Assembly (NCBI GenBank): GCA_043228905.1 | Contig: JBHGNT010000006.1 | Span: 3,162,001-3,226,000 of the forward strand | Source: Azolla caroliniana | Lineage: Eukaryota > Plantae > Polypodiophyta | DNA: 64,000 nucleotides | Direction: 5' to 3' | Shown: piece by piece, positions 3,420 through 48,704 of the stretch | Layout: each line of letters starts with the position of its first letter | How positions within the stretch are numbered: position 1 is the first letter of the stretch | Translations under genes and position numbers: made by a program | Notes under the pieces: model-generated | Told to the model about the DNA's origin: nothing | Database searches by the model: none | What the model saw: only the letters and a program-made list of their open reading frames with translations

Positions 3420-3838
3420 TAAGGTTCAAATGCATAGTTGATATTTGTAGTAGGATCCTTGGTAGCTCTTAAGGAATGCATGATGAATATCATCATGACA
3501 CAAACATGTCAATCTCACATGTCTTTAAAATATTAGAAGAGAGGTCAATTCTTTCCTTTTTTATTTCTTGGGAGAAATTCACTCCACTTTTACTTACTAT
3601 TCACTTGTTCAAGTCTTCTGAACTTAAGAAACATTCACCCACTTTACTTCAGGTGGTATGTTGTCTTAATCATACTTTTACCTTGGTGAGTTGGGTGTCA
3701 CATCAGCCTTCAACGTCTCTCTTTAAGAACGAGACGTGCATATGTTTTTTGGGTTGGATGGCATAACAAGAGCCATCACTCTAGATTCATTCCAAGAATT
3801 TGAAACAAGGTTTTTGTCCAAATAGATATCTTCCGTTA
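3420..3838 (-). pseudogene. Decayed E+/DYW domain remnant downstream of PPR1
   Basis: SWNE (3786-3797, ~SWIE), HPTQKTYARL (3731-3760, ~HPxxxxIYxxL) and TTA AAG ACA TGT G-A GAT TGA CAT (3506-3528, ~LRxCGDCH), in canonical order with stops and frameshifts. Confidence 0.6.
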
Positions 3839-6424
3839 TTATAAACATGTGTATTGATCACAAAAAAGAGTACCTACATAAACATTATACATACACACAA
3901 ATGCAATGACATCATTTTTATCCAATCCTATTGCATGATCAAACGCAAGTTGTGCAAATTCTAGATTGCTGAACTTCCTACAAGCGCCCAGCACAACATG
4001 CCAAATCATGGCCTTTGGCTGGAAAGGCATTTCTTTTGTTATTGCCACTGCCATGGCAACATGACCAGCCCGCCCAAGAAGATTTACTATACAAGCATAG
4101 TGTTGGAGAGGTGGAGCGAGATCTAAGTAAATGTTTATAGCCTCAAAGCACATCATACCTTCTTCCACTAGGCCTCCATGATTACATGCATTAAGCACAA
4201 TAAGGTATGTCACTAAATTAGGCTTTATATCTTCTCTCATCATGCTATTGAACATAGAGAAAACGCATGCACTCTCACCTAGTAGACAATATCCAGCCAT
4301 GAGTGCATTCCATGATGTAATATCTGGACAAGGAAGCCTATCAAATACTTCTTGTGCCTCTAGAAGTAAGCCACAGTTAGCATACATATCTATCAAGCTG
4401 TTAGCAATAAAAAACTCATCTTCTAACCCTTTATGAACAACGAAAGAATGTATAGCCTGGTTAGTATGCGTGATCAAGCAAGTTTTAAGAAGACAAATAA
4501 AAGCAACATTGTTGATTGAGATAGCCTCATTTTGCATGTGTTGGAAACATAGATGTGCTTCTATTTCATGTCCATTTTCAGCACATCCTGTCATCAGGGT
4601 TGTCCATGAGATTACATCACGAGCTTGAATGTCGTTGAACACTTTATGAGCGTCGTTAAGTAGTCCAGATTTCACGTACATGTATATTAAGCTATTTCCC
4701 ACAAGAAGATTCATCTCTAGCCCTTTTTTCATTATTTCAACATGTACGTTTTGACCTTTTGTTGTGCCCCAAATGCTACCGCAAGCTTTAATGCTACAAA
4801 CATATGTAATAATGTCTGATGAGATTCCCTCAATATACATTGATTCAACACAATTTAATACTTCCTCATAGAATCCATGTTCAGTGTAGCCTGAGATGAG
4901 TGCATTCCATGTAGCTACACTTCTATTTACAAGCTTAAGACACAGCATCTTTGCTTCTGAAAACCAACCACTTTTGCCATAAAAATGAACTAAGCTAGTG
5001 GCTACACGAACATCTGTTTCCAATCCTCTCATGATAATCTCAGCATGCAATCCTCGACCAATTTCTACATAGTCTCTGTCGACACAACATTTCAAGATTG
5101 ACATAAGCGTGAACACATTCCTTGAAACACCTGCATCTTTCATATCTTCCGAGTAATGAAGTGCTTTTTTAATGTCTCCAAGTTCAACACATGACGAGAT
5201 CAATGCAGTCCAGGGAAACACATCCTGTATTGTTAGTTTTCCAAGTACATATTGGGCTTCAAGAAGGAAACCACATTTCCCATACATATGAACCAATCCA
5301 CTTCCTATAACTATTTTTTCCTCAAACCCTCTTTTGATAACCTCAATATGCATTCTTCTACCTCTGGCTATGCACTTACAAGCTTTCAAGGAAAAAGTAA
5401 ATGTGATAGAATTCCCAAAGACACCCTTTTGTTGCATCTGTTCAAAGCAAAAGAGTGCCTCATCAGGACACCCTTGTTCAACATATCCGGAAATAAGCGT
5501 GGTCCAAGAGACCACATCTCTACTTGGAAGCTTGTCAAAAATTACCTTTGCTTCATCGAGATGACCATATTTAGCATAAAAATCAACCAAGCTGTTGCCA
5601 ATACACATCTCACATTCAAACCCCTTCTTTAAGATTTCACCATGTATTTCTCGCCCTTCTTCATCCAAGGTCAATATGCTACAACAAGCTTTTAAGCCAC
5701 AAGAACATGTGATAACGTTGGCAGATATGCCATGAAGTTTCATCTCTTTAAAGCGGTATAGTGCCTCATCACCATAGCCATGTTCTAAAAGACCTACAAT
5801 GAGAGCAGTCCAGGTGACTACATTTCGGAAAGTGAGTTTTTGAAATACTTGTTGTGCTTCTTGGATTGAGCCACATTTACAATACATATCTACCAAAGAG
5901 CTCCCAATATATGCATTCACATCTGATAACCCTATTTTAATTGTCTCGCCATGAAACCCTAAACCCTTATTCGGGTCTTGGATGAGGCCGCAAGCTTTTA
6001 AGCAGCAAACAAAGGTAATTTCATTCAAAGATATTCCTTCCCTTTGCATCTCCTTAATACAACACAATGCTTCCTCACCATAACCATGTTCAACATGTCC
6101 TGCTATGAGAGAAGTCCATGAAACCACATTTCTGACACAGAGGCTTTCCAATACATTTCTAGCTTCTGTGAATGAACCACATTTGGCATACATATGAACC
6201 AAAGAGGTTCCAACACATATGCTTTTCTCAGTAAATCCATGAGCAGTAATTTCACCGTGTATGACGTGACCCTTTTCTAGATCCTTCAACGAGATGCATC
6301 TCCTCAACATGCACATGAACATATCAACATAACCGATGGGAAAAGTATAGGTAGATGCAAGGTGGTAACACACATGACTCTGAGCTTGCGAAGGAGAAGA
6401 GACTTCTCTGAGGAACACTTCCAT
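3839..6424 (-). CDS. PLS-class pentatricopeptide repeat protein, E-type, no intact DYW (861 aa)
   Basis: Intronless ORF of tandem P-L-S triplets (LVDMYxKCG / VVSWTxLIxG / TFxCxLKAC), then L2-S2 (ACNHGGLVEEG, HYACIVNLLGRAG), E1 (WHVVLGAC) and partial E2. Confidence 0.93.
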   Translation of the reverse strand: MEVFLREVSSPSQAQSHVCYHLASTYTFPIGYVDMFMCMLRRCISLKDLEKGHVIHGEITAHGFTEKSICVGTSLVHMYAKCGSFTEARNVLESLCVRNVVSWTSLIAGHVEHGYGEEALCCIKEMQREGISLNEITFVCCLKACGLIQDPNKGLGFHGETIKIGLSDVNAYIGSSLVDMYCKCGSIQEAQQVFQKLTFRNVVTWTALIVGLLEHGYGDEALYRFKEMKLHGISANVITCSCGLKACCSILTLDEEGREIHGEILKKGFECEMCIGNSLVDFYAKYGHLDEAKVIFDKLPSRDVVSWTTLISGYVEQGCPDEALFCFEQMQQKGVFGNSITFTFSLKACKCIARGRRMHIEVIKRGFEEKIVIGSGLVHMYGKCGFLLEAQYVLGKLTIQDVFPWTALISSCVELGDIKKALHYSEDMKDAGVSRNVFTLMSILKCCVDRDYVEIGRGLHAEIIMRGLETDVRVATSLVHFYGKSGWFSEAKMLCLKLVNRSVATWNALISGYTEHGFYEEVLNCVESMYIEGISSDIITYVCSIKACGSIWGTTKGQNVHVEIMKKGLEMNLLVGNSLIYMYVKSGLLNDAHKVFNDIQARDVISWTTLMTGCAENGHEIEAHLCFQHMQNEAISINNVAFICLLKTCLITHTNQAIHSFVVHKGLEDEFFIANSLIDMYANCGLLLEAQEVFDRLPCPDITSWNALMAGYCLLGESACVFSMFNSMMREDIKPNLVTYLIVLNACNHGGLVEEGMMCFEAINIYLDLAPPLQHYACIVNLLGRAGHVAMAVAITKEMPFQPKAMIWHVVLGACRKFSNLEFAQLAFDHAIGLDKNDVIAFVCMYNVYVGTLFCDQYTCL

Positions 6425-6626
6425 TGAAGCACTCCATTAACTAACTAACTTTAGGCCTTGGGGCTCGGACATGCGGTTAGTTTTAATCGGTTACAATTTT
6501 TACCGAGTGCCTTCTCGATCAGACGACACTTGCACACGAATGAGAAGAGCATTCCTCGACTTCATGAATCTGGCTAGCTGCGGATGAATATTATCGAAAC
6601 TGCTCCTCGAGGAATGAACAAAGTGG

Positions 6627-8336: not shown

Positions 8337-11300
8337 ATGCCACTTCAATCCTCCATCGAGGATTTCTCCCACATACTGCAATACTGTAGACAGAAACAAG
8401 ACCCTGGCATTGCCTTAAAATTGCAGAGCTATGTTTGTCGCTGTGGATTAGAAGCTCACAGAATGCTTGGAAGCTTTCTTGTTGTGATGCTAGTGGAAAC
8501 TGGTTTAATTGAAAATGCAAAAAATATATTTGATATGCTAACGTATAAAGATCAAACGTCGTGGAGCAGCCTTATCAATGGTTATATTAATCTTGGAAAG
8601 CCGCACTTGGCTTTCCGAGTCTATGAAGAAAAATATCTCGATGTTGCTATGTATTATTCTAAAGGGCATACATTTGTGAACATATTGAAAGCCTGTATAA
8701 AACTAAAAGACCTCAAAACTGGTCTTCAAATGCATGTTGAGGCGTTGAGAACCAGATTGTTTTTTAGAGACCCTTTTGTTGGAAGTAGTTTGGTTGACAT
8801 GTATGCTAAATGTGGCTCACTTTCTATAGCCGAGGAAGTATTTGAGATGCTTCCAGTTAAGGATGTTGTTTCATGGACTACACTTATTGGAGGATATGTT
8901 GAGCATGGACATGAGGAAGAAGCTCTCAAATGTTTAGAAGAAATGGAAGACAAGGGTTTCTCTCCGAATCCTATCACTTATGTATGTGGTCTAAAAGCAT
9001 GTGGGTTTATAATAACTGTAGAGAAGGGCCAGAAGCTACATATAGAGATTGTAAAGAAGGGATTTTTGGAAACAAATGTGTTTGTAGGCAGTGCTTTAGT
9101 TGATATGTATGCAAAATTTGGCTTTTTTGATGTAGCTGGACAAATATGTAGTGACCTTCCAATTCGGAACGTGGTCACTTGGAATGCTTTAATTGCAGCT
9201 TATGCAGAGAATGGTCATAGTAAAAGTGCCTTCCAATGTCTTCAATCTATGCAATTAGATGGTGTTTTCCCTGACTCTATTTCATTGATGTGTATTCTGA
9301 AATCTTGCAGCAACATAAGAGATATAGAAAAGGGCCAAGATATACATGTGGATATTGAAAGAAAAGGATTTCTAAAGTGCAACCTTGTAATTGGCAACAC
9401 TCTCGTTGATATGTATTCAAAATGTGGCTTGCTCGCATCAGCACAAAATGTGTTTGACAATCTTCCAATGAAGGATGTTGTCTCATGGACAGTTCTTATA
9501 GGAGGGTATGCTGAACATGGCCATGGAAATGAAGCAATCAAGTGCTTTGAGCAGATGCAGCAAGGTTGCATCTCACCAAATCCTGTCACTTTTATTTGTC
9601 TACTGAAAGCTTGCAGTAGCGTAAGTTCAACTGAGAAAATCAGAGAAATACACGCAGAGGTAAAAAGATTAGGACTATCAGAGAGATACCGTGATGTTGG
9701 AAATGCATTGGTCGATATGTATGCAAAATCGAATCTTCTGTCAAAAGCACAAGAAGTGTTTGATAATCTTATGATCCGAGACCAAATGTCATGGAATGCA
9801 TTAATTGCTGGGTATGTTGAATATGGACATGAGAATGAAGCTCTCAAGTGTCTAGATCAGATGAAAGGTGAGGGAATCACCCCAACTGTTGTAACATTCG
9901 TTTGTATCTTGCGAGCTTGTGGTAGTCTAAGAGATCTAAATAAGGGTAAAAAATTGCATCACGAGATCGAGTTGAAATGTTTTCTAGATGACATTGTTGT
10001 AGCAAATGCCTTGATTGATATGTATGCCAAATGTGGACAGCTTCTTGTTGCACAAGAAGTGTTTGATAGGCTTCAAGTTCGAGATTTAGTTACTTGGACT
10101 GCATTGATGGAAGGATACATAGAAAACGGTAATGGTATAAATGCACTAAAGTGTTTTAGTCAGATGCAAGTTGAGGGTGTTTCTCGTGATGTAGTCACAC
10201 TTGTTTCTGGCTTAAAAGCATGTGGTGAGATAGGTGACGCAGATAAGGGTAAAGAAATACATGCTGAGATAGAAAAGCAAGGCCTGTTGGAAAGGGACAC
10301 CATGGTTGGCAGCACCTTGGTTTATATGTATGTCAACTGTGGTTCACTTTCAGAGGCACAACAGGTGTTTGGAAAACTTACTGTTCAAACTGTAGTTATA
10401 TGGAATGCATTAATTGTGGGTTATGCTGGTAAGGGCCACAATCTGGAAGCAATTAAGTGTTTTGAAACGATGCAACTCAAGGGTATCTTGGCAGATGCTG
10501 TTACATATGCTTTTGTCTTAAAAGCCTATGGCAGTATTGGTGCAACTGATAAGGTCAGCGACATACATGCTGAGGTTGAAACGAAAGGGTTATTGGAGGA
10601 GGAACCCATTGTTGGTAATGCCTTAGTAGATTTTTATGGAAAATGTGGCTCTCTACAAAGGGCACGACAAGTATTTGACAAGATTCGAGCTCGTAATGTT
10701 GTCTCATGGACTGCACTTATTTCAGGCTATACTGAACATGGGCAAGAGGAAGCAGCACTAAAGTGCTTTGAAGAGATGAAGTTGGAGGGTGTCGTTCCAG
10801 ATCATCTGACATTCCTTTGTGCTCTCAAAGCCTGCTGCAACATTGGAGTGATACAAAAAGCTAATGATATACATATTGAGCTTGAACAGAAGGATTTCCT
10901 AGAAGAAAGCATGGTCATTGGAAATACGATGGTAGATATTTATGGGAAATGTGGCTGGCTTACGAAAGCACAAGAAGTATTCGATAACATTCTATGTCGA
11001 AATGTAGTCTCATGGAATGCCTTGATGATAGGATATATCGAACATGGTCGTGGTGAAAAAGCTATGGAGTGTTTCGAACAAATGCAAGTTGAAGGAGTCT
11101 GTCCTGATCCTGTTACATTTCTTTGCAGCTTAAAAGCTTGCGGAAGTGTAGGGGCCATACAAAAGGGTGAAAAAGTGCATTCTGAGATAGAAATACGAGG
11201 GCTGCTTGAAACAGACTCTTTCATTGGAAGTACCTTGATTGATATGTACAGTAAGTGTGGCTCTCTTGTTAATGCAGAGAAGGTGTTTGACAATCTGTCA

Positions 11301-12071
11301 GTTCGAGATGTGGTCTCATGGAATGCACTGATATTAGCATATGCTATTGAAGGTGAGGGTAACAAAGCACTTCAACGAATTCACCAAATGCAGAGTGAGG
11401 ATATTTGCCCGACTGCTGCAACATTTATTTGCACTCTGAAAGCTTGTGGTAATATAGGAGCGATAGAGAAAGCTGGTGAAATACATGCTGAGATTGAGAG
11501 GAGAAGTTTGTTGGAAACTGATATGCTCATGGGTAATACGTTGGTTGATGTGTATGCAAAATGTGGATTTCTTGCCAAAGCATCAGATGTTTTTGACAAG
11601 CTTCTATTTCAAGGTGTGATATCTTGGACGGCACTTATGGCAGGATATGCACAGATCGGAGAGAATGAACGAGTTTTTTACATCTTTGAAAGAATGCTGG
11701 GTGAAGGCATAAAACCCGATTCGATCTCTTTTATTGTTCTTCTCAATGCGTGCAGTCATGCAGGATTATTTGAGGAAAGCCAATCATACTTTGAGGCAAT
11801 GAGCAAGAGATATGGTATTGTTCCTACTGTGGAGCATCATGCATGCATTGTGAATCTCCTCAACCGAGCTGGAAGATTACAGAAAGCAGTAGAAATGATT
11901 GATGATATGGCATTTAATCCAAACCGTGTAGTGTGGCAAACCATGCTCAGTGGTTGTAGGTACTGGGGAAATATTGAGCTCGGAAAAGAGGTATTTCAGT
12001 GTGCTGTTCGACTGGACAAAAAGGATGCTGCTGCGTATGTGTACATGTCTCACATCTGTGCAGGAGGTTGA
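8337..12071 (+). CDS. PLS-class pentatricopeptide repeat protein, E-type (1244 aa)
   Basis: About 11 regular P-L-S triplets, then ACSHAGLFEES, HHACIVNLLNRAG, E1 WQTMLSGC and E2 AAAYVYMSHICAGG*. Confidence 0.95.
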   Translation: MPLQSSIEDFSHILQYCRQKQDPGIALKLQSYVCRCGLEAHRMLGSFLVVMLVETGLIENAKNIFDMLTYKDQTSWSSLINGYINLGKPHLAFRVYEEKYLDVAMYYSKGHTFVNILKACIKLKDLKTGLQMHVEALRTRLFFRDPFVGSSLVDMYAKCGSLSIAEEVFEMLPVKDVVSWTTLIGGYVEHGHEEEALKCLEEMEDKGFSPNPITYVCGLKACGFIITVEKGQKLHIEIVKKGFLETNVFVGSALVDMYAKFGFFDVAGQICSDLPIRNVVTWNALIAAYAENGHSKSAFQCLQSMQLDGVFPDSISLMCILKSCSNIRDIEKGQDIHVDIERKGFLKCNLVIGNTLVDMYSKCGLLASAQNVFDNLPMKDVVSWTVLIGGYAEHGHGNEAIKCFEQMQQGCISPNPVTFICLLKACSSVSSTEKIREIHAEVKRLGLSERYRDVGNALVDMYAKSNLLSKAQEVFDNLMIRDQMSWNALIAGYVEYGHENEALKCLDQMKGEGITPTVVTFVCILRACGSLRDLNKGKKLHHEIELKCFLDDIVVANALIDMYAKCGQLLVAQEVFDRLQVRDLVTWTALMEGYIENGNGINALKCFSQMQVEGVSRDVVTLVSGLKACGEIGDADKGKEIHAEIEKQGLLERDTMVGSTLVYMYVNCGSLSEAQQVFGKLTVQTVVIWNALIVGYAGKGHNLEAIKCFETMQLKGILADAVTYAFVLKAYGSIGATDKVSDIHAEVETKGLLEEEPIVGNALVDFYGKCGSLQRARQVFDKIRARNVVSWTALISGYTEHGQEEAALKCFEEMKLEGVVPDHLTFLCALKACCNIGVIQKANDIHIELEQKDFLEESMVIGNTMVDIYGKCGWLTKAQEVFDNILCRNVVSWNALMIGYIEHGRGEKAMECFEQMQVEGVCPDPVTFLCSLKACGSVGAIQKGEKVHSEIEIRGLLETDSFIGSTLIDMYSKCGSLVNAEKVFDNLSVRDVVSWNALILAYAIEGEGNKALQRIHQMQSEDICPTAATFICTLKACGNIGAIEKAGEIHAEIERRSLLETDMLMGNTLVDVYAKCGFLAKASDVFDKLLFQGVISWTALMAGYAQIGENERVFYIFERMLGEGIKPDSISFIVLLNACSHAGLFEESQSYFEAMSKRYGIVPTVEHHACIVNLLNRAGRLQKAVEMIDDMAFNPNRVVWQTMLSGCRYWGNIELGKEVFQCAVRLDKKDAAAYVYMSHICAGG

Positions 12072-15978: not shown

Positions 15979-18900
15979 ATGAGCCGTCGGTCAAGTCGGA
16001 CAATTTATGTTGGAAATCTTCCTGGGGATATCCGTGAGGAGGAGGTTGAAGATCTCTTTTACAAGGTCAATATGTTTATTTTGTGAAAACGTTCATCTAT
16101 CATTATTTTACTATGCATATGCTTTAACAAGATTCAAATTTTTTTTTTTTGTCAATCTTTACGCTTCCTAACTTGAGCTTTTGTGTAGTATGGACCTATT
16201 GTTGATATTGATTTAAAAGTGCCTCCTCGTCCTCCGGGCTATTGCTTTGTTGAGGTAATGTGTCACTACTTAGTAAATCTGGATATTTTGCTAGCAACTC
16301 AAATGTCAAATATTTGATTGATTGACACAATTCCACAGTTTGAAGATGAGAGAGATGCAGAAGCTGCAATAAGGGGGCGTGATGGATATAATTTCGATGG
16401 ATATCACATAAGGGTACATTTGCTATAGAAATAGAAAGCCTGATGTTGTAGATATGCTGAAGGAATTGTGAGAAAATGTCTTTGTAATTTGATAGCTTTA
16501 TGGTTAATATTAATGAGCGTCCCTTTTTAAGCAATCTTGTGCTGTGCATTTCGTATTTCTTGGCTGAATGGTTTGAGTATGCTGATCTCTCTTTAGAAAC
16601 GTGACAGAAACTCAGCACAACGATGATGTGGTAATATTAAGCATGCAATAATAAAGTTATGCTTCTTCAGATGGATCTTCTAATTAAATTGAAGCTGTTT
16701 AGCCTTCTGTGAACATATTTATTTTTCTATTATTTCCATTTGTATTGATATTGTTTACTGGGACATTGTCATGCTGCATATCCACCAGGAGAAAATCATG
16801 ATAAGAGTAATACTTATAAACTTTGCTGTCATCTGGTGTTGTATAGAGAACCACTGGGGCCTCATATTTGTTGTATTGAGCATATAGGGGTATCAATTGT
16901 CCCAGTAGGACTAGCCAGAAGGATTTCTGATGCCAAGCATGTATTCTGTTTTAATTCTTTAGCTTGGCATACATGTTCTTGGGTGTGAGCAGTGTGCAAT
17001 TATGTGTTAATGTGAGCAATGTATGTAAGCTTACGTGAGTTAATGTATGTTTGTGTATAAAAGCAAGGTAAATAATGGAACCAAAACAATGTTGAAAGAA
17101 GTTAACTTAGGTATGACCATGTGAGCTGTGTGCATTTATGTGTAAATGTGATTCATGCATGTAGGCTTACACGAGTTAATATGTATTTACATGTCTGTGT
17201 TTGTGAAACCCAAAAAAAGTGAGGAAAAAAGGGGGAGCGAACCAAAGTTGAAGCCTAAATTAACATCTTAACCATTTGGCCCTTAGAAAAGGGAGAGCCT
17301 TGATTGGTTGTAGATATAGAATAGAAGGGAAGCCAAAGAGGTGGGAACCTATAGAGAAATAGGAAAATGTTAAAAGCCTTAATGAAGGTCAGGGTGTGCA
17401 AGTTTATGACAAGCATGGCTTGCACAGCAATGTTGCACCTATCTTCATCTTTGCTTTCACCATCACCATCACCATCACCATCACCATCACCATCACCATC
17501 ACCATCACCATCACCATCATCTTCTTCCTTATCATGTCATTGTCGTTATCTTCTTCACCATGACTTCATTGTCAGCATCAGCATCATCATAACCATCCTT
17601 TTAATCATGAAAAGGCATAGTATACTCTATTTGTTAGGAGTGTGACTTTGTGTTGAAGGTAAAGGGTCCAAATCTTCGAATTGAATTCTCCTCTTCTTCA
17701 TGCTCACAGTGTTTGTCATCTTAAATTTGCTTGTTATCCTCATTCATGTACAAGTGCAATCTATCAAACTCGATAACTTCTAGGAATTTATTTTCCTGCT
17801 AAGTTATCAACTTCAAATATGGGGGTTATGTAACTTTGATATCAAACTATTTGCAGGATAGTTGTGAAATCTGCAAATTTTCTTTGTTATATTGTTACAT
17901 CCTATATAACTTTCAGGTGTGCTGCCTAATAGCATACATGTACACGTTTATGAAGTTTGAATCATTGCATCAGTGTGTAACATCACATATGTAAATGATT
18001 TTAGCTATTTGCTTGGTATTTTCTATTGGCAGTACCATTTTGTTTACTATACATATGTGTGTTTTGGGACATTGATTGTATTTATTCTGCCCCCAACTTA
18101 CTTTTCCATGCTCAAATACCCATAGGTTGAGTTGGCCCATGGTGGGAGGGGTCAATCCTCGTCTTCGGATCGTAACAGCAACTTTAGTTATTCAGGTGGA
18201 AGAGTGGGCGGTGTTTCTAGACGATCAGATTATAGAGGTATGATATCTATCTTAATGTTCTTCCTGTTGGCCCTTCTTAAGGTTATTTGAAGTAAATGAT
18301 CTAATTGTATAAGTGCAGTTGTGGTAACTGGATTGCCATCCTCAGCATCTTGGCAGGATCTTAAGGTTTGATGGAGTGTAGTAGTATATTTTATTTAGTA
18401 TAATGGGAGCTTTTGAAGGCTCTCAGTTTTATCTTTTGGATTTTATCGGAGGGCTTTTTTAGGATCATATGCGCCGTGCTGGTGGTGAGGTTTGTTTTGC
18501 CCAAGTATTCCGAGATGGGAGGGGTGAGCATTTTTCTAAACTGTAGCATCATAAAATAGATGTTTTAGTTCTTGTTATGTTTATGGATCTTATTGAATAC
18601 TGCTATTGCTTGTTTACCACTGTGAGCTTATTTTAGGACTTGTTGGCATAGTGGACTATACAAATTATGATGATATGAAATATGCGGTATGCTCCTGTGA
18701 TTTGATTTCTTTGATAAGAAATTGTTTCTCTACCTAAGGAATCTTATTGGATTCATATCTATCTGTCCATCTATCTAGATACGAAAATTGGACGATTCAG
18801 AATTTAGGAACCCTTTTGCTAAAGGGTATATAAGGGTAAGGAATGCCAGTGGCATGAGCTTATTTCCTTTCTGGATAGGCTTGTTGAAAGCAGTCACTGA

Positions 18901-22799: not shown

Positions 22800-23168
22800 A
22801 GATATGCACAGAATTGATATGCATTTCGCAGATGGAAAATTAGAACGACAGGGCCAGGACCAATATAATCATTCTCTTCATGATGACATGGAATTCAAAG
22901 GGACATGAATCTAGATTTTGGTATTAACATACATTACTAGTGAGAACCCTCAATATGAGGTGAAACCCTCAAAAGAATGTTGATGTAGAAACTGCTGTGT
23001 AGACAGTATGACATGTTTAAAAGCATTCAAAGGTCTACCAAAACTGTACCCTTAGTCAATCATCCCAAGATAGTCTAGATGTCAAAGAATATTAACTCAT
23101 TCATGCACTTGCATGTTTATGTGACATCCCAGAATCTCAACCAATTTATAAATTGTTTCTTTGCATGT
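22800..23168 (-). pseudogene. Decayed E+/DYW domain remnant downstream of PPR3
   Basis: In frame with the PPR: ILGCHINMQVHE (23100-23135), MID*GY (23046-23063) and LHQHS (22974-22988), with L, H and S at canonical positions 22, 25 and 26 counted from GY. Shifted frame: NLDSCPFEFHVIMK (from 22917). Confidence 0.62.
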
Positions 23169-26105
23169 TCACAAAAGTGATATTTGGGCATCTCCATAAA
23201 TCTGAGACATCATCACATAAGCTGCAGAATCTTTCTTGTCAAGATACAGAGCTTGCTCAAATGCACGTCTTCCTAACTGTATATTTCCCCAGCTTCTACA
23301 CATACCCAGTAGTGAATGCCACACAATAGCATTAGCATGAACCTTAATCTCACTTATCATTTTTACTGCTGCCTCTAGCTGTCCCATGTGACCCAGAACA
23401 TTAATCATGCAACTATGATGATCAAGCATTGGAAGGATTCCGTAGTCTTCATTCATGGCTTCAAAATATGATCTACTCTCTGCATATAGGCAATTACGAC
23501 TACAACCACTGAGAATAATAATAAACGTGACATGATCTGGCACTATGCCTTTTCCACAGATTGTAGTATAGACATTAAAGACATTTTCAATCTCTCCACA
23601 CTGTACATATCCTTTCATAATGGAATTCCATGCAATTATATCTTGATACTGAAGCTTATGAAGCAATATATGTGCTACTTGGGTCAAGCCACATTTGACA
23701 TACATATCAATCACACTATTGGCAAGGATAACATCTCTTTCTAGTAAACCTTTTTCCGTGATCTCGGCGTGAAAACTATGGCCCTTCTCTATGGCACCAA
23801 TAATGCCACAAACTTTGAGGATAGAAACATATGTCACAGTATCTGGTGTGAGACCTGCATTTTGCATACATTTAAAACATGCAAGAGCTTCCTTCCTATC
23901 TTCATGTTTGGTACATCCCGCGATTAAAATATTCCAAGAGACTAAATCTTTAGCTGGAAGCTTAGTGAACAATGTCCGTAATTCGGCTAGAGAAGCAAAT
24001 TTGGCATACATGTTGAGTAAGGTGTTACCAACAAAGTTGCATTTCCATAAACCTTTCTTATCTATATCAGCATGTAATTCTACACCCTTCTCTGTGGCAC
24101 TCATGGTCTGACAAATTTTCAAGGCACAGATAATGGTAACAGCATCTGCATAGATACCTTCCATCTGCATCAGCTCAAAAAATGTGAGTGCTTGAATGCC
24201 ATGCCCATTCTCAGCATATCCAGCTATTAAAATCGTCCATACAACATGATCACGAATCGGAAGCTCATCAAATACTTTTTGTGCTTCAATAAGCAAGCCA
24301 CATTTAGTATACATATCTACCAAAGCATTACCAATACCAAGATCTTGGTCGAATAATCCTTTTCTTTCTATTTCAGAGTGTATATGATACCCTTCTTGTA
24401 TGCTTCCGACATCACCACAGACTTTCAGTATGCATGAAAAAGTAAGAGCATCTAAACTAATACCTGTCAGTTGCATGCGTTCAAGGCATTGTAATGATTC
24501 TTCTCCTTGTCCATCCTCAGCATAACCATAGATAAGTGTAGTCCAGGAGACTATATCTGGGACTGGCAGCTCAAAGAAAATTTCCTGTGCTCTAATAACC
24601 CAACCATTTCTAGCATAGATATCTATCAAAGAGTTGCCAATCATCATGTCTTCTTTAAACAAACCCCGTCTTTTTGTCTCTGCATGTATTTCACAACCTG
24701 TCTTTATATCCCCCGTCATGCTGCATGCTTTCAAGATGCAAACATATATAGCATTGTTTGGTATTATACACTGATCTTGCATCTGATAAAAGCACTCCAG
24801 CACTTCCTCATAATACCCATATTTACAGTATCCTGAAATTAAAGCATTCCATGAAACCACATTTCCTACAGGAAGCTTCTTAAATATTTCCTGTGCTTTT
24901 ACTAAGTCAGCCCAATCAAAATACATAGTGATTAGTGTGCTACCGATAAGTATATTACCTTCAAGAAATCCTTTTCTTTCAACCTCAGCATGTATTTCTT
25001 GACCTTTTTGTATGGCGCCTATGCTTCCACAAGCTTTCAAGCTACAAACAAATGTGATTGCGTTCGGAAGGACATCTTGATGCAACATTTCCTCAAAACA
25101 ATTGAGGGCTTCCAAACCTTGGTGATGGTCCACATGCCCTGCTATCAATGCAGTCCAAGCAACAACGTTTTGATTCGGAAGCATGTCCAATGACTGTTTT
25201 GCTTCAATGAACAAACCACATTTTGCATACATATCCACCAAGCTGTTACCAAGAATAAAATGTGTTTCGAGCAATCCTTTTCTCACAATCTCTGTATGCA
25301 TTTCTTGGCCTTTCTCTATTGCCCCTATACTACCACATGCTTTCAAGATGCAAAGCAATGTAACTGCATTTGGATTCACACCCTGAAGCCTCATTTTTCC
25401 ATAAAGCTCAAGTGCTTCTTGAGCATATCCATGTTCGGAATACCCTTCAATTAAAGCAGTCCATGATATGACATCTTGCCATTGAAGCTTGTCAAATACT
25501 AGTTGTGCTACTGAAATCAAACCCATTTTAGCATACATGCTGACCATCGCTCGGCCAATAACCACATCTTCCTCCAAAAGACCTCTTCTTAATATTTCAT
25601 TATGTAAGCTTTTTCCTTCTTCTATAGCTCTTATGTTGCCACAAGCTTTCAAGCTACAAACAAACGTGACTGCATTTGGAGAGACACCGCAATTTTCCAT
25701 TTCTTCAAAATATCCAAGTGCTCTCTCCCCAAATCCATGATTCACATATGCTGCGATGAGTGTATTCCATGTGACAACGTTTCTGAGAGGGAGGCCATGG
25801 AATACTTCTTGTGCTTTACCAAGAAATCCACATTCACCATACATACAAATTAAGCTACTACCGACATAGTAGTCACTTTCAAGAAATCCCATCCTGGCAA
25901 CCTCAGCATGTATATGAGAACCTCCAACAAGGTCTTGAAGCTTTGCACATGCCTTCAACAAAGCAACAAATGTGTAACATGTAAGACCTAGGCAAGGAAG
26001 GCTATGCAAGTAATTATAATAAAGAGCAAGGGCATTGTGTGGCCTCCCAATGGAAACATGGCTTCTCATGTGCCAATTCCATGACCATTCATTCCATGAA
26101 ACCAT
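23169..26105 (-). CDS. PLS-class pentatricopeptide repeat protein, E-type (978 aa), N-terminus possibly eroded
   Basis: P-L-S triplets, then HHSCMINVLGHMG, WHSLLGMC and SAAYVMMSQIYGDAQ. Confidence 0.92.
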   Translation of the reverse strand: MVSWNEWSWNWHMRSHVSIGRPHNALALYYNYLHSLPCLGLTCYTFVALLKACAKLQDLVGGSHIHAEVARMGFLESDYYVGSSLICMYGECGFLGKAQEVFHGLPLRNVVTWNTLIAAYVNHGFGERALGYFEEMENCGVSPNAVTFVCSLKACGNIRAIEEGKSLHNEILRRGLLEEDVVIGRAMVSMYAKMGLISVAQLVFDKLQWQDVISWTALIEGYSEHGYAQEALELYGKMRLQGVNPNAVTLLCILKACGSIGAIEKGQEMHTEIVRKGLLETHFILGNSLVDMYAKCGLFIEAKQSLDMLPNQNVVAWTALIAGHVDHHQGLEALNCFEEMLHQDVLPNAITFVCSLKACGSIGAIQKGQEIHAEVERKGFLEGNILIGSTLITMYFDWADLVKAQEIFKKLPVGNVVSWNALISGYCKYGYYEEVLECFYQMQDQCIIPNNAIYVCILKACSMTGDIKTGCEIHAETKRRGLFKEDMMIGNSLIDIYARNGWVIRAQEIFFELPVPDIVSWTTLIYGYAEDGQGEESLQCLERMQLTGISLDALTFSCILKVCGDVGSIQEGYHIHSEIERKGLFDQDLGIGNALVDMYTKCGLLIEAQKVFDELPIRDHVVWTILIAGYAENGHGIQALTFFELMQMEGIYADAVTIICALKICQTMSATEKGVELHADIDKKGLWKCNFVGNTLLNMYAKFASLAELRTLFTKLPAKDLVSWNILIAGCTKHEDRKEALACFKCMQNAGLTPDTVTYVSILKVCGIIGAIEKGHSFHAEITEKGLLERDVILANSVIDMYVKCGLTQVAHILLHKLQYQDIIAWNSIMKGYVQCGEIENVFNVYTTICGKGIVPDHVTFIIILSGCSRNCLYAESRSYFEAMNEDYGILPMLDHHSCMINVLGHMGQLEAAVKMISEIKVHANAIVWHSLLGMCRSWGNIQLGRRAFEQALYLDKKDSAAYVMMSQIYGDAQISLL

Positions 26106-26237
26106 ACTAAATCTACATCCATACTCATTACATCTCTAAATCTATGAGTTTCTCATGTGCCAATTCCATGACCATTCATTCCATGAAACCATACCAAATC
26201 TACATCCATACTCATTACATCTCTAAATCTATGAGTT
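26063..26237. repeat. 87-bp near-perfect tandem duplication over the PPR3 start codon
   Basis: TCTCATGTGCCAATTCC... starts at 26064 and again at 26151. One mismatch seen. Confidence 0.95.
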
Positions 26238-32327: not shown

Positions 32328-32547
32328 GGCCTTTTCTTTATCTTTTTATTGTTTCTCTTTCAAAAAGCTTCTGGAAACAGTCCTTCAAAAGAAGGAACAG
32401 ATTCAGAGAGGTTTGAAGTCGAGATGGGGGGTGGGACAGGAGAGGGAAAGAGAGAACTCACCAGGTTTTATGCAGGTTAGAAGAAAGCTTGGCGGAGTGG
32501 AGCTATGTCGTTCGTTGCTTCGAGAGGGGATTCGACAGAACCGTAAC

Positions 32548-34965: not shown

Positions 34966-35389
34966 TGATACATGCCTTGCACAAGCCACTAATTTAAATT
35001 AGACTTTCCTCAGGGAAAACGATTTAGCATTTTATAGCATAACCATTGTGAAAAAAGAACACTTCATCGAAATCTTTTATTTATCAAAATAGCCTCATTG
35101 GGGAAGATGGAGGGTCTCATGGCTCCACAAGGACTATGTTGCTCTCTTACAACGAAACATTTTATTGCCTCAAACCTGCTATCGATCTCTCCTTGTAGCC
35201 AAATCCATAGTAGAAGAGTAGAACATGAATTGTTGTTAATATAATATAATTCTGTCCAAAATGAAAAATTGGAGTATACAAGTTAGAATCTTACTTGTTG
35301 CAATGGTCAGTCTTGACAGAAATAGAATAAATTCATGGAGCATTCAAGTGAAAATCTTACTTGTTGGGTCACTCTTGCCATCCACAAGT

Positions 35390-35864
35390 TTGCTCAAATG
35401 GAACTGAAGACTTCTCTTCAAAGGAAGAAAGTGATATAATCATGAAGTCTACAGATCAAAATATTGGTCTTGTCATTCATCTCAAATGTCATGTTGCAAT
35501 ATTTGCATATCCTGACATGTTTGTATACCTTCTTCACAAGCAAAAAGATGAAGGGACATAATCAGAAACTCAAAAAGAAATATGTTTTAATTACCTTTCA
35601 TATCATAGAGACAAAAGAATACACATTGTAGAGCTACTTTCTCACCTGCTCAATTTCCAATTCCAGATTCACATCAGCAATTTGTACAAGCCACGATTGC
35701 ATTGATATCGTCAACACATCCATGGTGCAGATGATCAGTTGTGGTAGTTTATTGTTATATTAAATAATGACCTTGAATTTGGACTGCATGTTTGCATGAT
35801 TTGGAATCCACTTCAATAGTCGGCTGTGCTTGAAGAAGTTGGTGTACAACTTTCAATTTACAAG
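35390..35864 (-). pseudogene. Decayed DYW domain remnant downstream of PPR4
   Basis: One frame gives QAQPTIEVDSK (IEV starts 35817), GCVDDI (from 35721) and AGEKVAL (E at 35643, exactly 26 codons after G as in GYVPDT...HSE). Then KHVRICKYCN (35493-35522), four single-nt changes from KNLRICxDCH. Confidence 0.68.
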
Positions 35865-38510
35865 CTAAGTAGCAACACCTGAATATATATGAGACATAAG
35901 CACGTAAGATGCAGCATGTTGTTTCCCAATCGACACTGCATTCTTAAATACCTCTTTTCCAAGTTCCACATTTCCACATTTTCTACAAGAACCTAGAACA
36001 GTATGCCAAACATCAAGATCAGGGTTGAATGGCAACCTCTTGACCATTGCTAATGCCATGTCAATTTGACCTACACGAGCAAAAAGATCCACAATGCAGG
36101 CATGGTGTTCCACAGTAGGAATAATTCCATAGTCTCTACTCATAGCTTCAAGATACATCAAACTACTATTAAATAACCCTATACGACTACATGCATTAAG
36201 AATAATGACAAAGGTGATATGGTTGGGCTTTATAGATTTTTTGAGCATACTGTGAAAGACATTTAAAACATTTTCACTGTCTCCAAGCTGGGCATACCCT
36301 GCCATTAATGAATTCCACAAGGTTGTGTCCTGTACTGGACGCTTATCAAACACTTCTTGTGCTAAGTCAAGTGAACCACATTTACAATACATGTCAACCA
36401 AAGCAATGCCAGCAGCTGGATCATTTTCCAATAACCCATTTCTTTCCAATTGAGCATGTATTTCTCGACCCTTATCTATGGCTCCAGCATAACCACAAGC
36501 TTTCAGGATGCAAAGATATGTCACATCATCTGGAGACAATCCCTCTAGGGACATATGTGCAAGGCAATCAAGTGCTGCTTCTCCATGACCTTGCTCTGCA
36601 TAGCCTGAAATTAGTGCGGTCCATGAAAAAACATTCTGAACCGCCAGCTTATCAAACACTTTGCGTGCCTTTTTAAGAAAACCACATTTGGCATACATGC
36701 TGATCAATGCGCAGCCAACAGCAGGATCTTCCAACAGCCCTCTTTTTTCAATTTCCAAATGGAGGTTTTCCCCCTTCTCTATTGCTCCAATACAGCTACA
36801 AGCTTTCAAACATGAGACAAAAGCAATAGCATCTGGATGAACTCCCTCTAGCAACATTTCATTAAAACAGCTGATTGCTTCCTCACTTGGCCCATGCTCA
36901 ATATAGCCATTAAAAAGAGAAGTCCAAGAGACAACAGTTCTGATTGGAAGCTTGTCAAAAACTTCTTGCGCTTTAACAAGAGATCCAGATTTCACATACA
37001 AATCAACCAAGCTATTTCCTACCATGATATCTCTTTCCAACAAACCTTTTACAACAATCTCAGTATGTATTTTTCCACTTGTCTCTATGGCTCCAACATT
37101 GCCACAAGCTTTCAAGCTGCAAGTGAATGTAATTGCACTTGGCGAAATTCCTTCAACTTGCATCTGTTCAAAACACTGCAATACTTTCTCGTTATACCCA
37201 TGATTCGCATATCCTGTAACCAAAGAATTCCAGGAAACAATGTCTCGACCTGGAAGCTTCTCAAATGCACCTTGTGCCAGGTCAAGGAAACCACATTTAG
37301 CATACATTACAATTAGCATATTGCCAACAGAAAGTTCTCTTCCAAATAAACTTTGGATCTCAATCTTTGCATGTATTTGTTGGCCTTTTTCTACAGATCC
37401 TATAGTACCACATGCTTTCAAGATGCAAACAAGAGTAATATCATCTATTGGTATACCTTCAAGTTGCATCTGTTCAAAACATTTAAGTGCTTCATCACCA
37501 CGCCTATGCTCAGCAAGCCCCGAAATTAGCATAGTCCATGATACAGAATCCCGAACACTAAGCTTGTCAAAAGTTATTTGTGCTTTGGTAAGAAAGCCAC
37601 ATTTACAATACATATCAACCAATGCACTACCGACAATCAAATCTGTTTCTAGCATATGATTGGTTTCAATTTCAGCATGTATTGCTTGGCCCATGCCGAC
37701 ATCACCTCTATTGCCACAAATCCTTAGAACACAAGAAAATGTTATAGGATCTGGAGAGACACCTTCAAGTTGCATTTGCTCGAAGCAGTCTATGACATCT
37801 TGATCACAGCCATATCTTGCATATGCTGTAATGAGTGCATTCCAAGAGACAACATTTCTAACCGGAATCTTTACGAAAACTTCTCGTGCCTTAACAAGTG
37901 AACCAAAATTAGCGTACATATCAAGTAACGCGGTACCAACATAAAGGTCCTCTTGGAGCGATTTATTTCTAGCAATATCAGCATGAATTCTTGGTCCCTT
38001 TTCGATGTCTTTCACCTCTCTACAAGACTTGAGCAAAGCGACAACAGCATGTCCAGAGAGAAGAACAATATCTTCATTTTGTAATCTCTGGTAGAGGTTT
38101 AAGGCATATATGGGCTTTCCACATCTCACACAACCAGTGATGAGAGTATTCCAAGATAATTCATTAGGATGCAACAATGCATCAAAGGCCTTGTAAGCTT
38201 CATCAATACATCCAACATCCACAAACATAGAGATAAGGCAATTACATAAAGACGTATGAGCTTCCAAGTCATTTCTATACACATAGGAATGAAGACGGAG
38301 TACCTGATTGCGATCATTCCTTCTTCTAGATCTATGCAATATGCTTAATATGTCTCCAATGGAAGGTTGAGGATGTGTACCTTTCTCGAGAAGTGGCAAT
38401 GCTTGATCGAGGGTGAGAATCTTCCAGAAGCTATGGAAACCATGTGCCTGCGCCACTTCGCTCAGGAATGCTGATGCAGGAAGCCCTGCGGTAGATTGCC
38501 ATGTCTGCAT
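35865..38510 (-). CDS. PLS-class pentatricopeptide repeat protein, E-type (881 aa)
   Basis: P-L-S triplets, then HHACIVDLFARVG, WHTVLGSC and AASYVLMSHIYSG. Confidence 0.94.
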   Translation of the reverse strand: MQTWQSTAGLPASAFLSEVAQAHGFHSFWKILTLDQALPLLEKGTHPQPSIGDILSILHRSRRRNDRNQVLRLHSYVYRNDLEAHTSLCNCLISMFVDVGCIDEAYKAFDALLHPNELSWNTLITGCVRCGKPIYALNLYQRLQNEDIVLLSGHAVVALLKSCREVKDIEKGPRIHADIARNKSLQEDLYVGTALLDMYANFGSLVKAREVFVKIPVRNVVSWNALITAYARYGCDQDVIDCFEQMQLEGVSPDPITFSCVLRICGNRGDVGMGQAIHAEIETNHMLETDLIVGSALVDMYCKCGFLTKAQITFDKLSVRDSVSWTMLISGLAEHRRGDEALKCFEQMQLEGIPIDDITLVCILKACGTIGSVEKGQQIHAKIEIQSLFGRELSVGNMLIVMYAKCGFLDLAQGAFEKLPGRDIVSWNSLVTGYANHGYNEKVLQCFEQMQVEGISPSAITFTCSLKACGNVGAIETSGKIHTEIVVKGLLERDIMVGNSLVDLYVKSGSLVKAQEVFDKLPIRTVVSWTSLFNGYIEHGPSEEAISCFNEMLLEGVHPDAIAFVSCLKACSCIGAIEKGENLHLEIEKRGLLEDPAVGCALISMYAKCGFLKKARKVFDKLAVQNVFSWTALISGYAEQGHGEAALDCLAHMSLEGLSPDDVTYLCILKACGYAGAIDKGREIHAQLERNGLLENDPAAGIALVDMYCKCGSLDLAQEVFDKRPVQDTTLWNSLMAGYAQLGDSENVLNVFHSMLKKSIKPNHITFVIILNACSRIGLFNSSLMYLEAMSRDYGIIPTVEHHACIVDLFARVGQIDMALAMVKRLPFNPDLDVWHTVLGSCRKCGNVELGKEVFKNAVSIGKQHAASYVLMSHIYSGVAT

Positions 38511-45776: not shown

Positions 45777-46559
45777 CACATTGTGTTCTGAAACTAAAAC
45801 TGTTGGTGCACATCAATGATCCAGACATGAACCCAGAAACATTATGAAGCGCATTTATGTTTTTAAATTTTAAATTTTGTAACCTTGTGAATCTATAAGA
45901 AACAGGACATTTGTGACCTGTATGCAATATGTTTTGACATACATATTAGTATTTAAAGACTGATCTACCTGATCTACATGCAATTTATAAATGTGCAAAG
46001 GTTTCAAGTTTTCAAATGAACTTCATTTTTTATAAGAATGGCATCAGAACGGCATCAGAATGGGTATTGCATATTAGATGCAGCATCGGAAAAAATAATT
46101 TCACAATAGCCTCACCAAACATTCATGATCTAGATTCTTACAATGCATAAAGAATCAAATATGCAATGAAGACTATTCTTACAATTATTTACCTTCATCT
46201 CATTGCCATCTCTCAAATTTAAAACACCCTTAGAGCTTACATATAAAATACATATTCTAAACAAGTCATTGACATTTACAACATGTAATCTATCCTCCAA
46301 CATTGCCTTTATCAAGTCGGGACATGAGGATGAGCACCTAATTCTATCATTTACATCTGTGTCTCTGAATGATGACAAGTGTATATTAGTATTGATTGTA
46401 GTAATAACAAACAAATGTTTTTTACTTCATCATCCCTCTATTTAGACTTCCTCTCTACATGATTTAACTCAATAACCTGTTAGACCAGATTCAAAAATCT
46501 TCATTTTCCTCTACTAGAGGTTAGGACCATAAGAATAATCCTAGTGTTTACAGAAGAAT

Positions 46560-46922
46560 TGGCTTAGGAGGCAATGCTTTAGCAAGATTAATTGGTTGGT
46601 TACGAGTTCAAATTCCACTGAACATAAATTTGGTCCAGAAATGTTTTGGTCTTTACCAAATACCCTTGGGAAAACCTAAGATTCCACAGCTACTCTTTTG
46701 CACCAACCTCATTAACACTTAGCCAACATCCAAACTTCAGCTATGGGACACTACATAAGGTCAAGTTTTTGTTAACCCTTGTGACTCAAAGCTAAATGTG
46801 GGCATCTTTATGAAATTCTGATTCCCCTTGGAGCACTAAGATTTGCGTAGACATCAATCTTTCATAACATTTGGCCTTTCCAATCTTTTTGTGCATGTGT
46901 GTCACCACAATGAAAGCATATT
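46560..46922 (-). pseudogene. Possible decayed E+/DYW remnant downstream of PPR5
   Basis: GDTHAQ (46889-46906), YERL, HS*SLDVG*VLM (46710-46745, ~HSEKLAVAYGLM) and NLR (46675-46683). A gag zinc-knuckle reading is also possible. Confidence 0.4.
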
Positions 46923-48704
46923 TTATCCACCAATGGATATTTTTTTATTTTCTTTGGATTGCAGCTTCATTATCCCATCAAATGCTTGTTTTGCTCTTCC
47001 CAAATTACCGTATGCACAACATGCACCTAACAAAGCCAACCAGATGGTGAGATTGGGTTCCATTGGCATCTTTGTTAAGATAACTTCAATCATCCCAAAG
47101 TTCCCTGTTTGGCCAAGCATCTCTATTATGCTACTATAATGTTTCAAGCCTGGTATTAAACCATAGTCTTTACTTATGGATTCAAAATACTGAAGACCTC
47201 TATGCACAAGGCCACTGTGACTACAAGCCGAAAGAATTGAAACAAATGTGACATCATTTGGTTTCATTTGTGTCTTCTTCAGTACCTCAAAGATTTGTAG
47301 ACACGATACATGATCTCCTAGGCATGCATAACCAGCTATGTATGCATTCCAAAACACTATATCAGGTTGCTCTATAGCTTTATCAAACAATGGTTTTGCA
47401 TCTACCATACTAAGGGTGCAAATCCCATAGACATAGATAAGCGTTGATGCTATACATGGTATTCGGTCATAACCCAAAGCAACTATTTCCATGTGATGTT
47501 GTCTACATCTCTCCACATTTCTTATAGCACCACAAGCTTGAATAAGACATAACAGTATAACATGATCCAGGATCATGCCCTTCTCCTGCACAATTTTATA
47601 AAGATCTAATGCTTTGTGCCCTAATCCTTTATGAACATATGCACACACCATTGCGCTCAATGACATAGTAGTTTGTTCGTTCATTCCATCAAATACAGCT
47701 TCAACTTCTTTTATCAATCCACATTTTCCATACAGACTCATGATTGTATTGCAAACAAAGACATTGGATGCATAACCCATTTTTATGACATCCGTGTGTA
47801 ATGATTTTCCGATCTCCAAATATGATCGATGAATATCTTGTGTTTCTACAAGTATACTACATGCCTGAAGTGCATGCACCAATGTTTGCTCATTCGGGCT
47901 CACACCCTTTTCTTGCATGTGCTTGTAGAGTTGTAAAGCATTCTTTTCATAACCATTTTCAGCGTATGCTGAGAGCATCGTAGTCCATGATATGACATCA
48001 TACTTGAATGGGCATCCACAAAATACATTCTCAGCCTCCTTAATCGCGCCGCATTTGCCATAAACATTTACAAGGCTGTTTGCAACAACAGTGTTTATTG
48101 CACAATGTTTCCAGAAGAAATCCGAATGAATAGCCCGAGAAAGATTGAGAAGCATCAAATCAGCTCCCAGATCCTTTCGGAACAAGCCTTCTTCTTTCTT
48201 GACTAGAATTCTTGTAGCATGAAGAATGATCGAGAAAGTCGTAAAATCCGGATTCATACCTTCGTGCTTCATTTGTCGATACAACAACAATACACGGTTT
48301 GCCTTCCCAAGGTCAACATAGGCCAAGAGCATGCTATTCCAGGAGATAACGCTCCGTCTACGCAGGGCAACAAATATTCTCTCAGCCATTGCGATCTCAC
48401 CACATTTTCCATACATACTCAAGAGACTGTTTGAAACAAAAATGTTGGATAGAAAGTCTTCTTCTCTATGGATAAGGAGAGCATGGATTTCTTTACCATG
48501 CCCAAGATACCTTATACTTGCACAAGCTTTCAAAACACATACAAAAGTGTGTGGACAAGGCTTGATACCATTGTTTTGTATGCGAGAAAAAATGTTCAAT
48601 GCTATCTCAGGTTCACCACGCTCGATACATGATGAAATCATGGTATTCCAAAAGATTGATCTTGATGAAGGAGACCCCAATGCTTTATTTGACCATATGA
48701 TCAT
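46923..48704 (-). CDS. PLS-class PPR protein with extended L motifs, truncated before E2 (593 aa)
   Basis: PLS repeats, ACSHSGLVHRG, HYSSIIEMLGQTG and WLALLGAC. It lacks YVLMSNIY and starts inside a PPR motif, so it may be a young pseudogene. Confidence 0.85.
   Translation of the reverse strand: MIIWSNKALGSPSSRSIFWNTMISSCIERGEPEIALNIFSRIQNNGIKPCPHTFVCVLKACASIRYLGHGKEIHALLIHREEDFLSNIFVSNSLLSMYGKCGEIAMAERIFVALRRRSVISWNSMLLAYVDLGKANRVLLLYRQMKHEGMNPDFTTFSIILHATRILVKKEEGLFRKDLGADLMLLNLSRAIHSDFFWKHCAINTVVANSLVNVYGKCGAIKEAENVFCGCPFKYDVISWTTMLSAYAENGYEKNALQLYKHMQEKGVSPNEQTLVHALQACSILVETQDIHRSYLEIGKSLHTDVIKMGYASNVFVCNTIMSLYGKCGLIKEVEAVFDGMNEQTTMSLSAMVCAYVHKGLGHKALDLYKIVQEKGMILDHVILLCLIQACGAIRNVERCRQHHMEIVALGYDRIPCIASTLIYVYGICTLSMVDAKPLFDKAIEQPDIVFWNAYIAGYACLGDHVSCLQIFEVLKKTQMKPNDVTFVSILSACSHSGLVHRGLQYFESISKDYGLIPGLKHYSSIIEMLGQTGNFGMIEVILTKMPMEPNLTIWLALLGACCAYGNLGRAKQAFDGIMKLQSKENKKISIGG

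Follow-up and report, generated by a model that had tools for sequence, protein, structure and literature searches.

Five truncated PLS-PPR genes of Azolla caroliniana as putative RNA-editing guides, and candidate proteins that could provide their catalysis in trans

The window, i.e., the whole stretch of 64,000 nucleotides that was analyzed (contig JBHGNT010000006.1 of assembly GCA_043228905.1, positions 3,162,001 to 3,226,000), derives from the 523-Mb genome of A. caroliniana, for whose proteins the closest named relatives are found in Ceratopteris, Adiantum and Pteridium. It harbors five open PLS-PPR reading frames of 593 to 1244 amino acids when counted from the ATG; all of them end in E2, between W+39 and W+54, where W denotes the conserved tryptophan of E1 and stop positions are counted in codons from this residue. 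The first-pass annotation of this DNA, which reported five open frames that end in or before E2, was correct in this respect.

3839..6424, minus strand: PPR1, an 861-aa PLS-PPR ending after E2 helix A, with its stop at W+54 (54 codons past the E1 tryptophan)
8337..12071, plus strand: PPR2, a 1244-aa PLS-PPR ending directly past E2 helix A, stop at W+45
23169..26105, minus strand: PPR3, a 978-aa PLS-PPR, stop at W+50
35865..38510, minus strand: PPR4, an 881-aa PLS-PPR, stop at W+47
46923..48704, minus strand: PPR5, a 593-aa PLS-PPR whose frame is left before E2 helix A, at W+39

Three other features are found in the window: an intact chloroplast import receptor gene of the TOC159/132 family (28398-32345, minus strand; AIG1 and TOC159_MAD domains), an RS-repeat ORF that by eye probably represents one exon of a gene for an SR-type splicing factor (18779-19177, plus strand), and a Ser/Pro/Arg-rich frame of 415 codons without a Pfam match (52967-54214, minus strand), opposite to which a frame of 276 codons is present on the other strand.

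Each of the five genes possesses the P-L-S array ending in P2-L2-S2-E1 with code residues that is characteristic of PPR proteins in the PLS class, and canonical code pairs are present in 31 of 34 P motifs and 25 of 28 S motifs, as counted with a regular expression that itself biases position 5. E1 is complete in every case, E2 is incomplete in all five, and neither E+ nor DYW follows, a composition that matches that of the E subclass of guides. They lack the complete E2, PG box and E+ of the E+ subclass, their stops being located 27 to 72 nt before the gate position, and an in-frame DYW domain with HxE and CxxC, as found in PLS-DYW enzymes, is missing from each. In typical angiosperm E proteins, E2 is not incomplete, unlike in the five window proteins. 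A PF14432 profile search of the genome yielded 122 matches from 145 candidates, with none in the window. In the ORFs of PPR3 and PPR5, hardly any residues precede the first repeat, and a leader is not evident in either; an upstream targeting exon may be absent from these ORFs. An 87-bp tandem duplication (98% match) at 26063-26238 lies over the PPR3 ATG.

The first-pass annotation had described eroded DYW motifs in their proper order behind all five genes and had proposed a frameshift-aware search against shuffled and non-PPR controls. Such a search was conducted with a codon-level profile that tolerates frameshifts and stops, models neutral decay, and was built from 43 intact E-DYW ends of the same genome (8 WW-gate, 3 related, 22 KP-like and 10 PG genes, classes that we assigned ourselves, chiefly from gate motifs). 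When left-out intact genes were decayed in silico, a score above 3 was reached by 100% of them at 0.4 substitutions per site, 40% at 0.6 and 3% at 0.8. The five window tails score between −1.5 and +0.4 with this profile, and genuine fossils elsewhere in the genome between 30 and 102. The tails were assessed by strict Viterbi, local forward, anchored forward and permissive Viterbi scoring and over the region from E1 onward, and additionally with sub-profiles for E2 helix B, gate/E+ and the core. When the WW-class profile was run at its most permissive, the scores of PPR1 to PPR5 were equalled or exceeded by 36, 64, 146, 3 and 17 of 218 real-DNA controls, respectively; PPR1, PPR2, PPR3 and PPR5 do not rise above these controls, and the claim of DYW motifs behind all five genes is not confirmed for these four and is borderline for PPR4. 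The counts obtained with the all-class profile (17, 8, 93, 14 and 9 of 218, in the same order) lean mildly towards the first-pass annotation. Controls consisting of shuffles only are too lenient, as distal and reverse-complement DNA beat shuffles to a similar extent, and the proximal tails of 31 truncated genes were no better than distal or reverse-complement DNA. Across 109 truncated genes, the tails exceed real controls slightly (p about 0.065 after normalization to their own shuffles); a strong raw excess with the sub-profiles (p down to 1e-11) was discarded, as it fell to this value upon normalization and mostly reflects composition. Among 39 genes that stop by W+50, none reached p ≤ 0.05.

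A loose ordered chain of motifs (gate, GY, HxE, CxxC), which was defined after PPR4 had been seen, does not occur behind PPR1, PPR2 or PPR5 and is found in 23 of 134 non-PPR windows; chains recognized by eye over three frames arise in roughly one in six control windows and call for caution with the window genes. A stricter chain is found behind PPR4 and also in 1 of the 134 control windows. The exactly canonical GY-to-HxE spacing previously attributed to PPR3 and PPR4 is recovered with loosened motifs, which also let 4 of 134 controls pass; under a strict definition it is lost, with GY followed by HSFE instead of a true HxE in PPR3 (22968..23051, minus strand; profile score below the control median), and with GC at the GY position and AGEK at the HxE position in PPR4. 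Past the end of PPR2, the stop codon followed by EDKKINIM resembles E2 helix B by eye and scores like controls. One further stretch lies at the end of PPR5:

46880..46935, minus strand: gate/E+-like stretch across the PPR5 stop (HWWIK-YAFIV-GDT-HAQ), requiring a frameshift

Its score is not significant, being matched in 71 of 500 shuffles and 7 of 218 real controls; to the eye it is suggestive.

The tail of PPR4 deserves separate consideration.

35430..35864, minus strand: 3' tail of PPR4 containing pieces of borderline DYW likeness (TIEVD at 35820, GEKVALQC at 35646, KHVRICKYC at 35522)
35529..35645, minus strand: intron of 117 nt in the PPR4 3' UTR, GT-AG, with the acceptor inferred from 20 unaligned letters of a contig from run X8
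35252..35360, minus strand: intron of 109 nt in the PPR4 3' UTR, GT-AG, skipped in contigs of the relatives' runs X1 and X8

Scores as high as that of this tail occur in only 4 of 2000 shuffles and in 3 of the 218 real controls, a result that is the best of about eight settings applied to five genes, and forward scoring gives p about 0.05; the tail is possibly a very old DYW fossil. The distance from HxE to CxxC is about 55 nt too long, and the HxE-like GEKVAL coincides with the CAG-GTGAG donor of the 117-nt intron. This identity counts against a fossil and weakens the case, although a conversion of old HSE codons into a splice donor is conceivable. PPR4 has a long 3' UTR (window positions 35013-35864, minus strand) with two introns past the stop. 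Introns downstream of a stop codon normally invite nonsense-mediated decay. The stop of the PPR4 ORF precedes both introns, and the spliced tail contains stops in all three frames.

Genuine DYW fossils exist at other loci of the genome. A frameshifted fossil tail was detected behind the following genes, of which the first four were picked via the DYW search and the last two via the set of E1-E2 paralogues:

L092 (C4), L086 (C1), L085 (C17), L094 (C11), L123 (C16) and L152 (C5)

These six tails, whose scores span the range of 30 to 102, contain 3 to 6 frameshifts or stops in 134 to 159 codons and follow at least 566-825 unbroken codons. Among 80 E1-E2 paralogues, two clear fossils (L123 and L152) and two weak ones (L155 and L157) were found. 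All six fossil genes sit on short branches that are nested within intact WW-type genes, and PG-type cases are represented by L090 and L018. HxE and CxxC are both kept in 5 of 8 intact WW genes versus 20 of 22 KP-like and 9 of 10 PG genes, and the normal HSE is absent from all four further WW genes. The WW-type DYW, judged from its sequence, appears to be a domain class in ongoing decay within a younger clade. The earlier proposal that PLS-E genes descend from complete DYW enzymes and keep their RNA-binding ORF holds at six other loci and is not supported for the five genes of the window. The fossils illustrate how a guide originates: selection is retained on the binding tract, and the deaminase falls into decay. 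As a separate observation, the catalytic His or Glu, or the DYW at the very end, is frequently missing from WW-type DYW domains that are still in frame (L061-L063, L074, L077-L080, L084, L098-L100). Extra partial DYW copies lie beside intact DYW genes at G000:C5:4653341-4654125, C3:21873335-21873754 and C21:3275034, an arrangement that suggests local duplication of the tail.

The phylogenetic position of the window genes was assessed with a midpoint-rooted FastTree phylogeny of about the last 243 residues, into which foreign homologues chosen by a search with PPR4 were included; the DYW-less assignments in this tree rest on gene models of other species, which could miss exons. PPR2, PPR3 and PPR4 belong to a clade of 53 members (support 0.976) that comprises 16 proteins of A. 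caroliniana, 13 of Ceratopteris, 11 of Adiantum and 13 others, none with a DYW domain. PPR5 falls into a 25-member clade of truncated proteins only (support 1.0), and PPR1 into a weakly supported truncated group. The loss of DYW in PPR2, PPR3 and PPR4 is, on this evidence, likely ancient and shared, and would have occurred before these ferns split. The separate loss in each gene that had been proposed conflicts with the placement of PPR2/3/4 and PPR5 in shared DYW-less clades. Terminal branches measure 0.3 to 0.8 substitutions per residue; with branches of such length since an ancient loss, neutral DYW remnants would have been erased, and none is to be expected. The scattered stops are better read as a later nibbling of an already dispensable end.

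Contigs from relatives differ from the PPR4 coding sequence by 3-4% without gaps, over an uninterrupted 2556 nt, and from the PPR4 tail by 7.4-7.5% with gaps; they cover the PPR3 tail only as far as 22670. Synonymous changes make up 8 of 18 coding differences listed for PPR4 and 12 of 35 for PPR3, corresponding to dN/dS values of about 0.35 and 0.50, respectively (pooled 0.43, p = 0.005, 53 differences). These values cover PPR3 and PPR4, with 418 and 179 further rows outside the listed differences and with 1 and 4 rows dropped beforehand for a paralogue signal; they indicate moderate purifying selection on both genes. A 1-base gap in PPR3 at 23726 occurs in one run that is probably DNA, and the contigs may represent paralogues. 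Our guess is that the relatives' runs are RNA, and the spliced joints argue for mRNA. The ordinary pseudogenization that the first-pass annotation associated with dN/dS near 1 and a lack of expression is not what was observed, the dN/dS of PPR3 and PPR4 being about 0.4 and spliced contigs existing for PPR4; the combination of neutral dN/dS, broken frame and missing transcript does not describe either gene. When ORFs were simulated, only 1 of 300 was still open at 0.05 substitutions per site, and the long frames of the window genes are open despite nearest paralogues that are only about 45-60% identical. Open frames such as those of PPR1, PPR2 and PPR5 would rarely survive a divergence of 0.05 substitutions per site. 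Among proteins, a one-to-one orthologue of PPR4 was not found; the best matches show 35-52% identity.

The gene family to which these proteins belong is large. A first look with the E1-E2 region of PPR2 gave 2217 candidates (not a copy number) versus the 122 DYW matches, and a cross-check of coordinates placed a DYW domain behind about 6 of 150 scored candidates. Paralogues obtained with E1-E2 queries were truncated in 80 of 80 cases. Unbiased queries ending before E1 led to 60 fetched loci and, after deduplication, 41 genes with stops from W+26 to W+75; E1 is kept in all 41, a PG box or DYW is present in none, and 12 of the 41 stop at W+26-37, before E2 helix A. An apparent wall of stops just past E2 helix A (77 of 80) proved to be an artefact of E2-containing queries and vanished with the unbiased ones, and a model in which guide and donor complement each other exactly between E2 helix A and helix B was dropped in view of the 12 paralogues that stop before helix A.

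Three proteins encoded elsewhere in the genome are of particular interest as potential partners.

L096:668-1978 (G000:C1:31721167 region), minus strand: P0001, a single ORF of 437 aa, with a duplicate on C723
L233:656-1267 (G000:C10, about 18470950-18471570), minus strand: P0242, a PPR-less ORF of 203 aa
L097:678-3806 (G000:C1:33400580), minus strand: L097, a long PLS array with degenerate E2/gate and an intact DYW core

P0001 consists of a Ser-rich leader, which by eye looks like a plastid transit peptide, a conserved Pro-rich segment and, past it, E2 helix B, PG box, E+ and an intact DYW domain; its Pfam matches are restricted to E/E+/DYW, and PPR repeats are absent. It has an intact HSE, CxxCH and terminal DYW and is conserved, its C-terminal part being nearly invariant in Ceratopteris, Adiantum and Pteridium; these are the sequence properties of a donor, and P0001 is accordingly a candidate trans deaminase. 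Its closest relative in the genome, L095 (L095:6066-6788), is built alike; a splice-acceptor-like site precedes the DYW-coding ORF of L095. The short trans-donor DYW genes for which a search had been suggested earlier were found as PPR-less candidates, and their role is predicted. P0242 comprises a leader, the whole E2, a KKPGKAWIE gate and E+, and ends just past GYVP; its E2-E+ region is 73-81% identical in Ceratopteris, Adiantum and Pteridium, where the proteins terminate at the same place; in two longer homologues (593 and 505 aa), PPR repeats are still present in a decaying state. We regard it as a candidate adaptor. An intron that would join P0242 to a DYW core was considered and rejected, as no core lies within about 8 kb downstream and the homologues share the same end. 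The intact core of L097 begins about where P0242 ends; in its layout, L097 resembles DYW2. P0236, which had been labelled a DYW protein by its length, is not one.

A complex prediction for the PPR2 C-terminus with P0001 (residues 240-437) reached 0.49 versus 0.04 for the best control, with runs agreeing in at least 47% of contacts and a partner pLDDT of at least 72; among the comparison pairs, 51 of 78 solved ones and 2 of 108 mismatched ones attained the mark applied, and with values no higher than 0.60 only 5 of 78 solved pairs and all 4 passing mismatches did so. The prediction lends weak support to docking. Since a single-chain PPR-DYW structure exists (9KFX), whose residues 455-612 align with P0001, it shows likeness only.

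Several of these features have parallels in known systems. The split editosome is established in angiosperms, where recognition and catalysis reside on separate proteins, as in PPR-E with MEF8/MEF8S and PPR-E+ with DYW2/NUWA, and where the donors make up for the parts missing from the guide, which are either E+ and DYW or one half of the gating domain (excerpts of PMC9522420 and PMC10226603). The putative guides of this fern, in contrast, can end as early as E1, and the candidate P0001, unlike the donors of these editosomes, is PPR-less and starts with E2 helix B after its conserved Pro-rich segment; as a further difference, the fern has a separate E2-PG-E+ protein without PPR repeats. P0001 is predicted to act as a PPR-less DYW protein in trans, as does DYW1 with CRR4 (PMC9522420 and PMC10226603). 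DYW1 serves this one partner (PMC10226603), whereas P0001 also possesses a PG box, E2 helix B and E+ and is expected to act with many guides; the DYW1 chain of structure 7W86 matches P0001 only from residue 331. MORF co-factors are described as specific to seed plants in the portion of PMC5515838 that was consulted. The P2-L2-S2-E1 architecture of the window proteins is that of the full-length PLS-DYW protein consPPR-DYW (PDB 9KFX), in which it forms the surface contacting DYW (PMC13324415, excerpts); unlike consPPR-DYW, the proteins of the window lack a catalytic domain, since they already stop in E2. The excerpts of PMC12548569 report thousands of PLS proteins, few DYW proteins and short DYW/DYW:KP proteins in the Salviniales, an excess resembling the one seen here, mention no obvious C-terminal signature, and propose trans donors. 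Named donor candidates, fossil tails and an E2-E+ adaptor go beyond what these excerpts contain. Our literature search found no fossil DYW tails, named fern donor or E2-E+ adaptor, nor any earlier report of these particular proteins or fossils; PPR catalogues may already class them.

We suggest, as the reading that we hold to be rather probable, that the five genes encode selected PLS guides ending in E2 that borrow catalysis from a separate DYW protein and thereby take part in editing in trans. They belong to very large fern clades in which the deaminase was likely lost a single time, far in the past. The PLS-E1 guide would bind its site on an organellar RNA, and a P0001-like donor would dock on the P2-L2-S2-E1/E2 helix A region of the guide and deaminate the target; alternatively, P0242 could serve as the link between E1 and a DYW core with a degenerate gate, as in L097. 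If the donor supplies all parts past E1, the guide's own tail would be free to erode, and this would account for the scattered stops. More tentatively, and in our estimation doubtful as it stands, the fern editosome may be split elsewhere than that of seed plants, with guides ending in E1/E2 helix A on the one side and P0001 or P0242/L097 on the other. Thousands of guides would then share a one-piece or a two-piece donor; with its KP-like gate, the two-piece P0242/L097 system might constitute a shared U-to-C machine. Both halves of this split would appear to be in progress, with DYW tails decaying behind guides and, ahead of the adaptor, PPR repeats likewise in decay. For the earlier suggestion of either a split system or a repurposing for non-editing roles, candidate partners have come to light for the former, with functions that are predicted. 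The matter is of interest for hyper-editing ferns, in which deaminase-bearing PPR proteins are far fewer than editing sites and a shared catalytic partner is sought (PMC12548569, excerpts). The conserved candidates have Ceratopteris orthologues (KP509_22G033800 and KP509_18G082100), and the minimal boundary of a guide would be E1.

Other explanations have to be weighed against trans editing. DYW-less PLS proteins can have non-editing roles, and the window proteins might be functional factors that stabilize, splice or process organellar RNA and have shed an unneeded deaminase; the missing catalytic domain and PG box, the dispensable E2 and a selection on repeats that suits any RNA-binding role agree with this. 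We nevertheless judge it rather improbable, as E1, which contacts DYW and the RNA beside the edited base in a solved structure (PMC13324415, excerpts), is always kept, about 120 DYW genes are too few for the thousands of fern editing sites (PMC12548569, excerpts), and PPR-less donor-like proteins are conserved. That each gene lost its own DYW separately and left a readable fossil, as the first-pass annotation held, draws on the PPR4 tail in its one favorable setting, the gate-like stretch of PPR5, the slight excess across the 109 tails and the real fossils at other loci; with four tails at control level, no significant case among the 39 early-stopping genes, the shared DYW-less clades, and a key PPR4 motif that is a splice donor with improper spacing to CxxC, it is improbable.

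Ordinary pseudogenes or junk duplicates would be in keeping with a very large and fast-diverging family and with a moderate dN/dS that covers PPR3 and PPR4 only. Against them speak the long frames that stay open at such paralogue divergence, a dN/dS of less than 1, orthologous contigs free of gaps and the splicing seen in PPR4 contigs, so that this explanation is largely refuted for PPR3 and PPR4 and very unlikely for the set. Finally, splicing could join E2 to an exon further downstream that encodes the DYW domain, a notion to which the PPR4 introns past E2 and the acceptor-like site of L095 lend some color; given the lack of DYW matches in the window, the stop that precedes both introns and the spliced PPR4 tail that is closed in all three frames, it is barely credible.

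A search of the ESM Atlas returned only generic E-motif clusters. A further set of PLS genes (L235, L236, L238, L239, L240, L242 and L243) carries a PG/KP-like gate and E+ and stops just past a GYVP-like segment; by its sequence, this group resembles a classical E+-like class that ends where P0242 ends.
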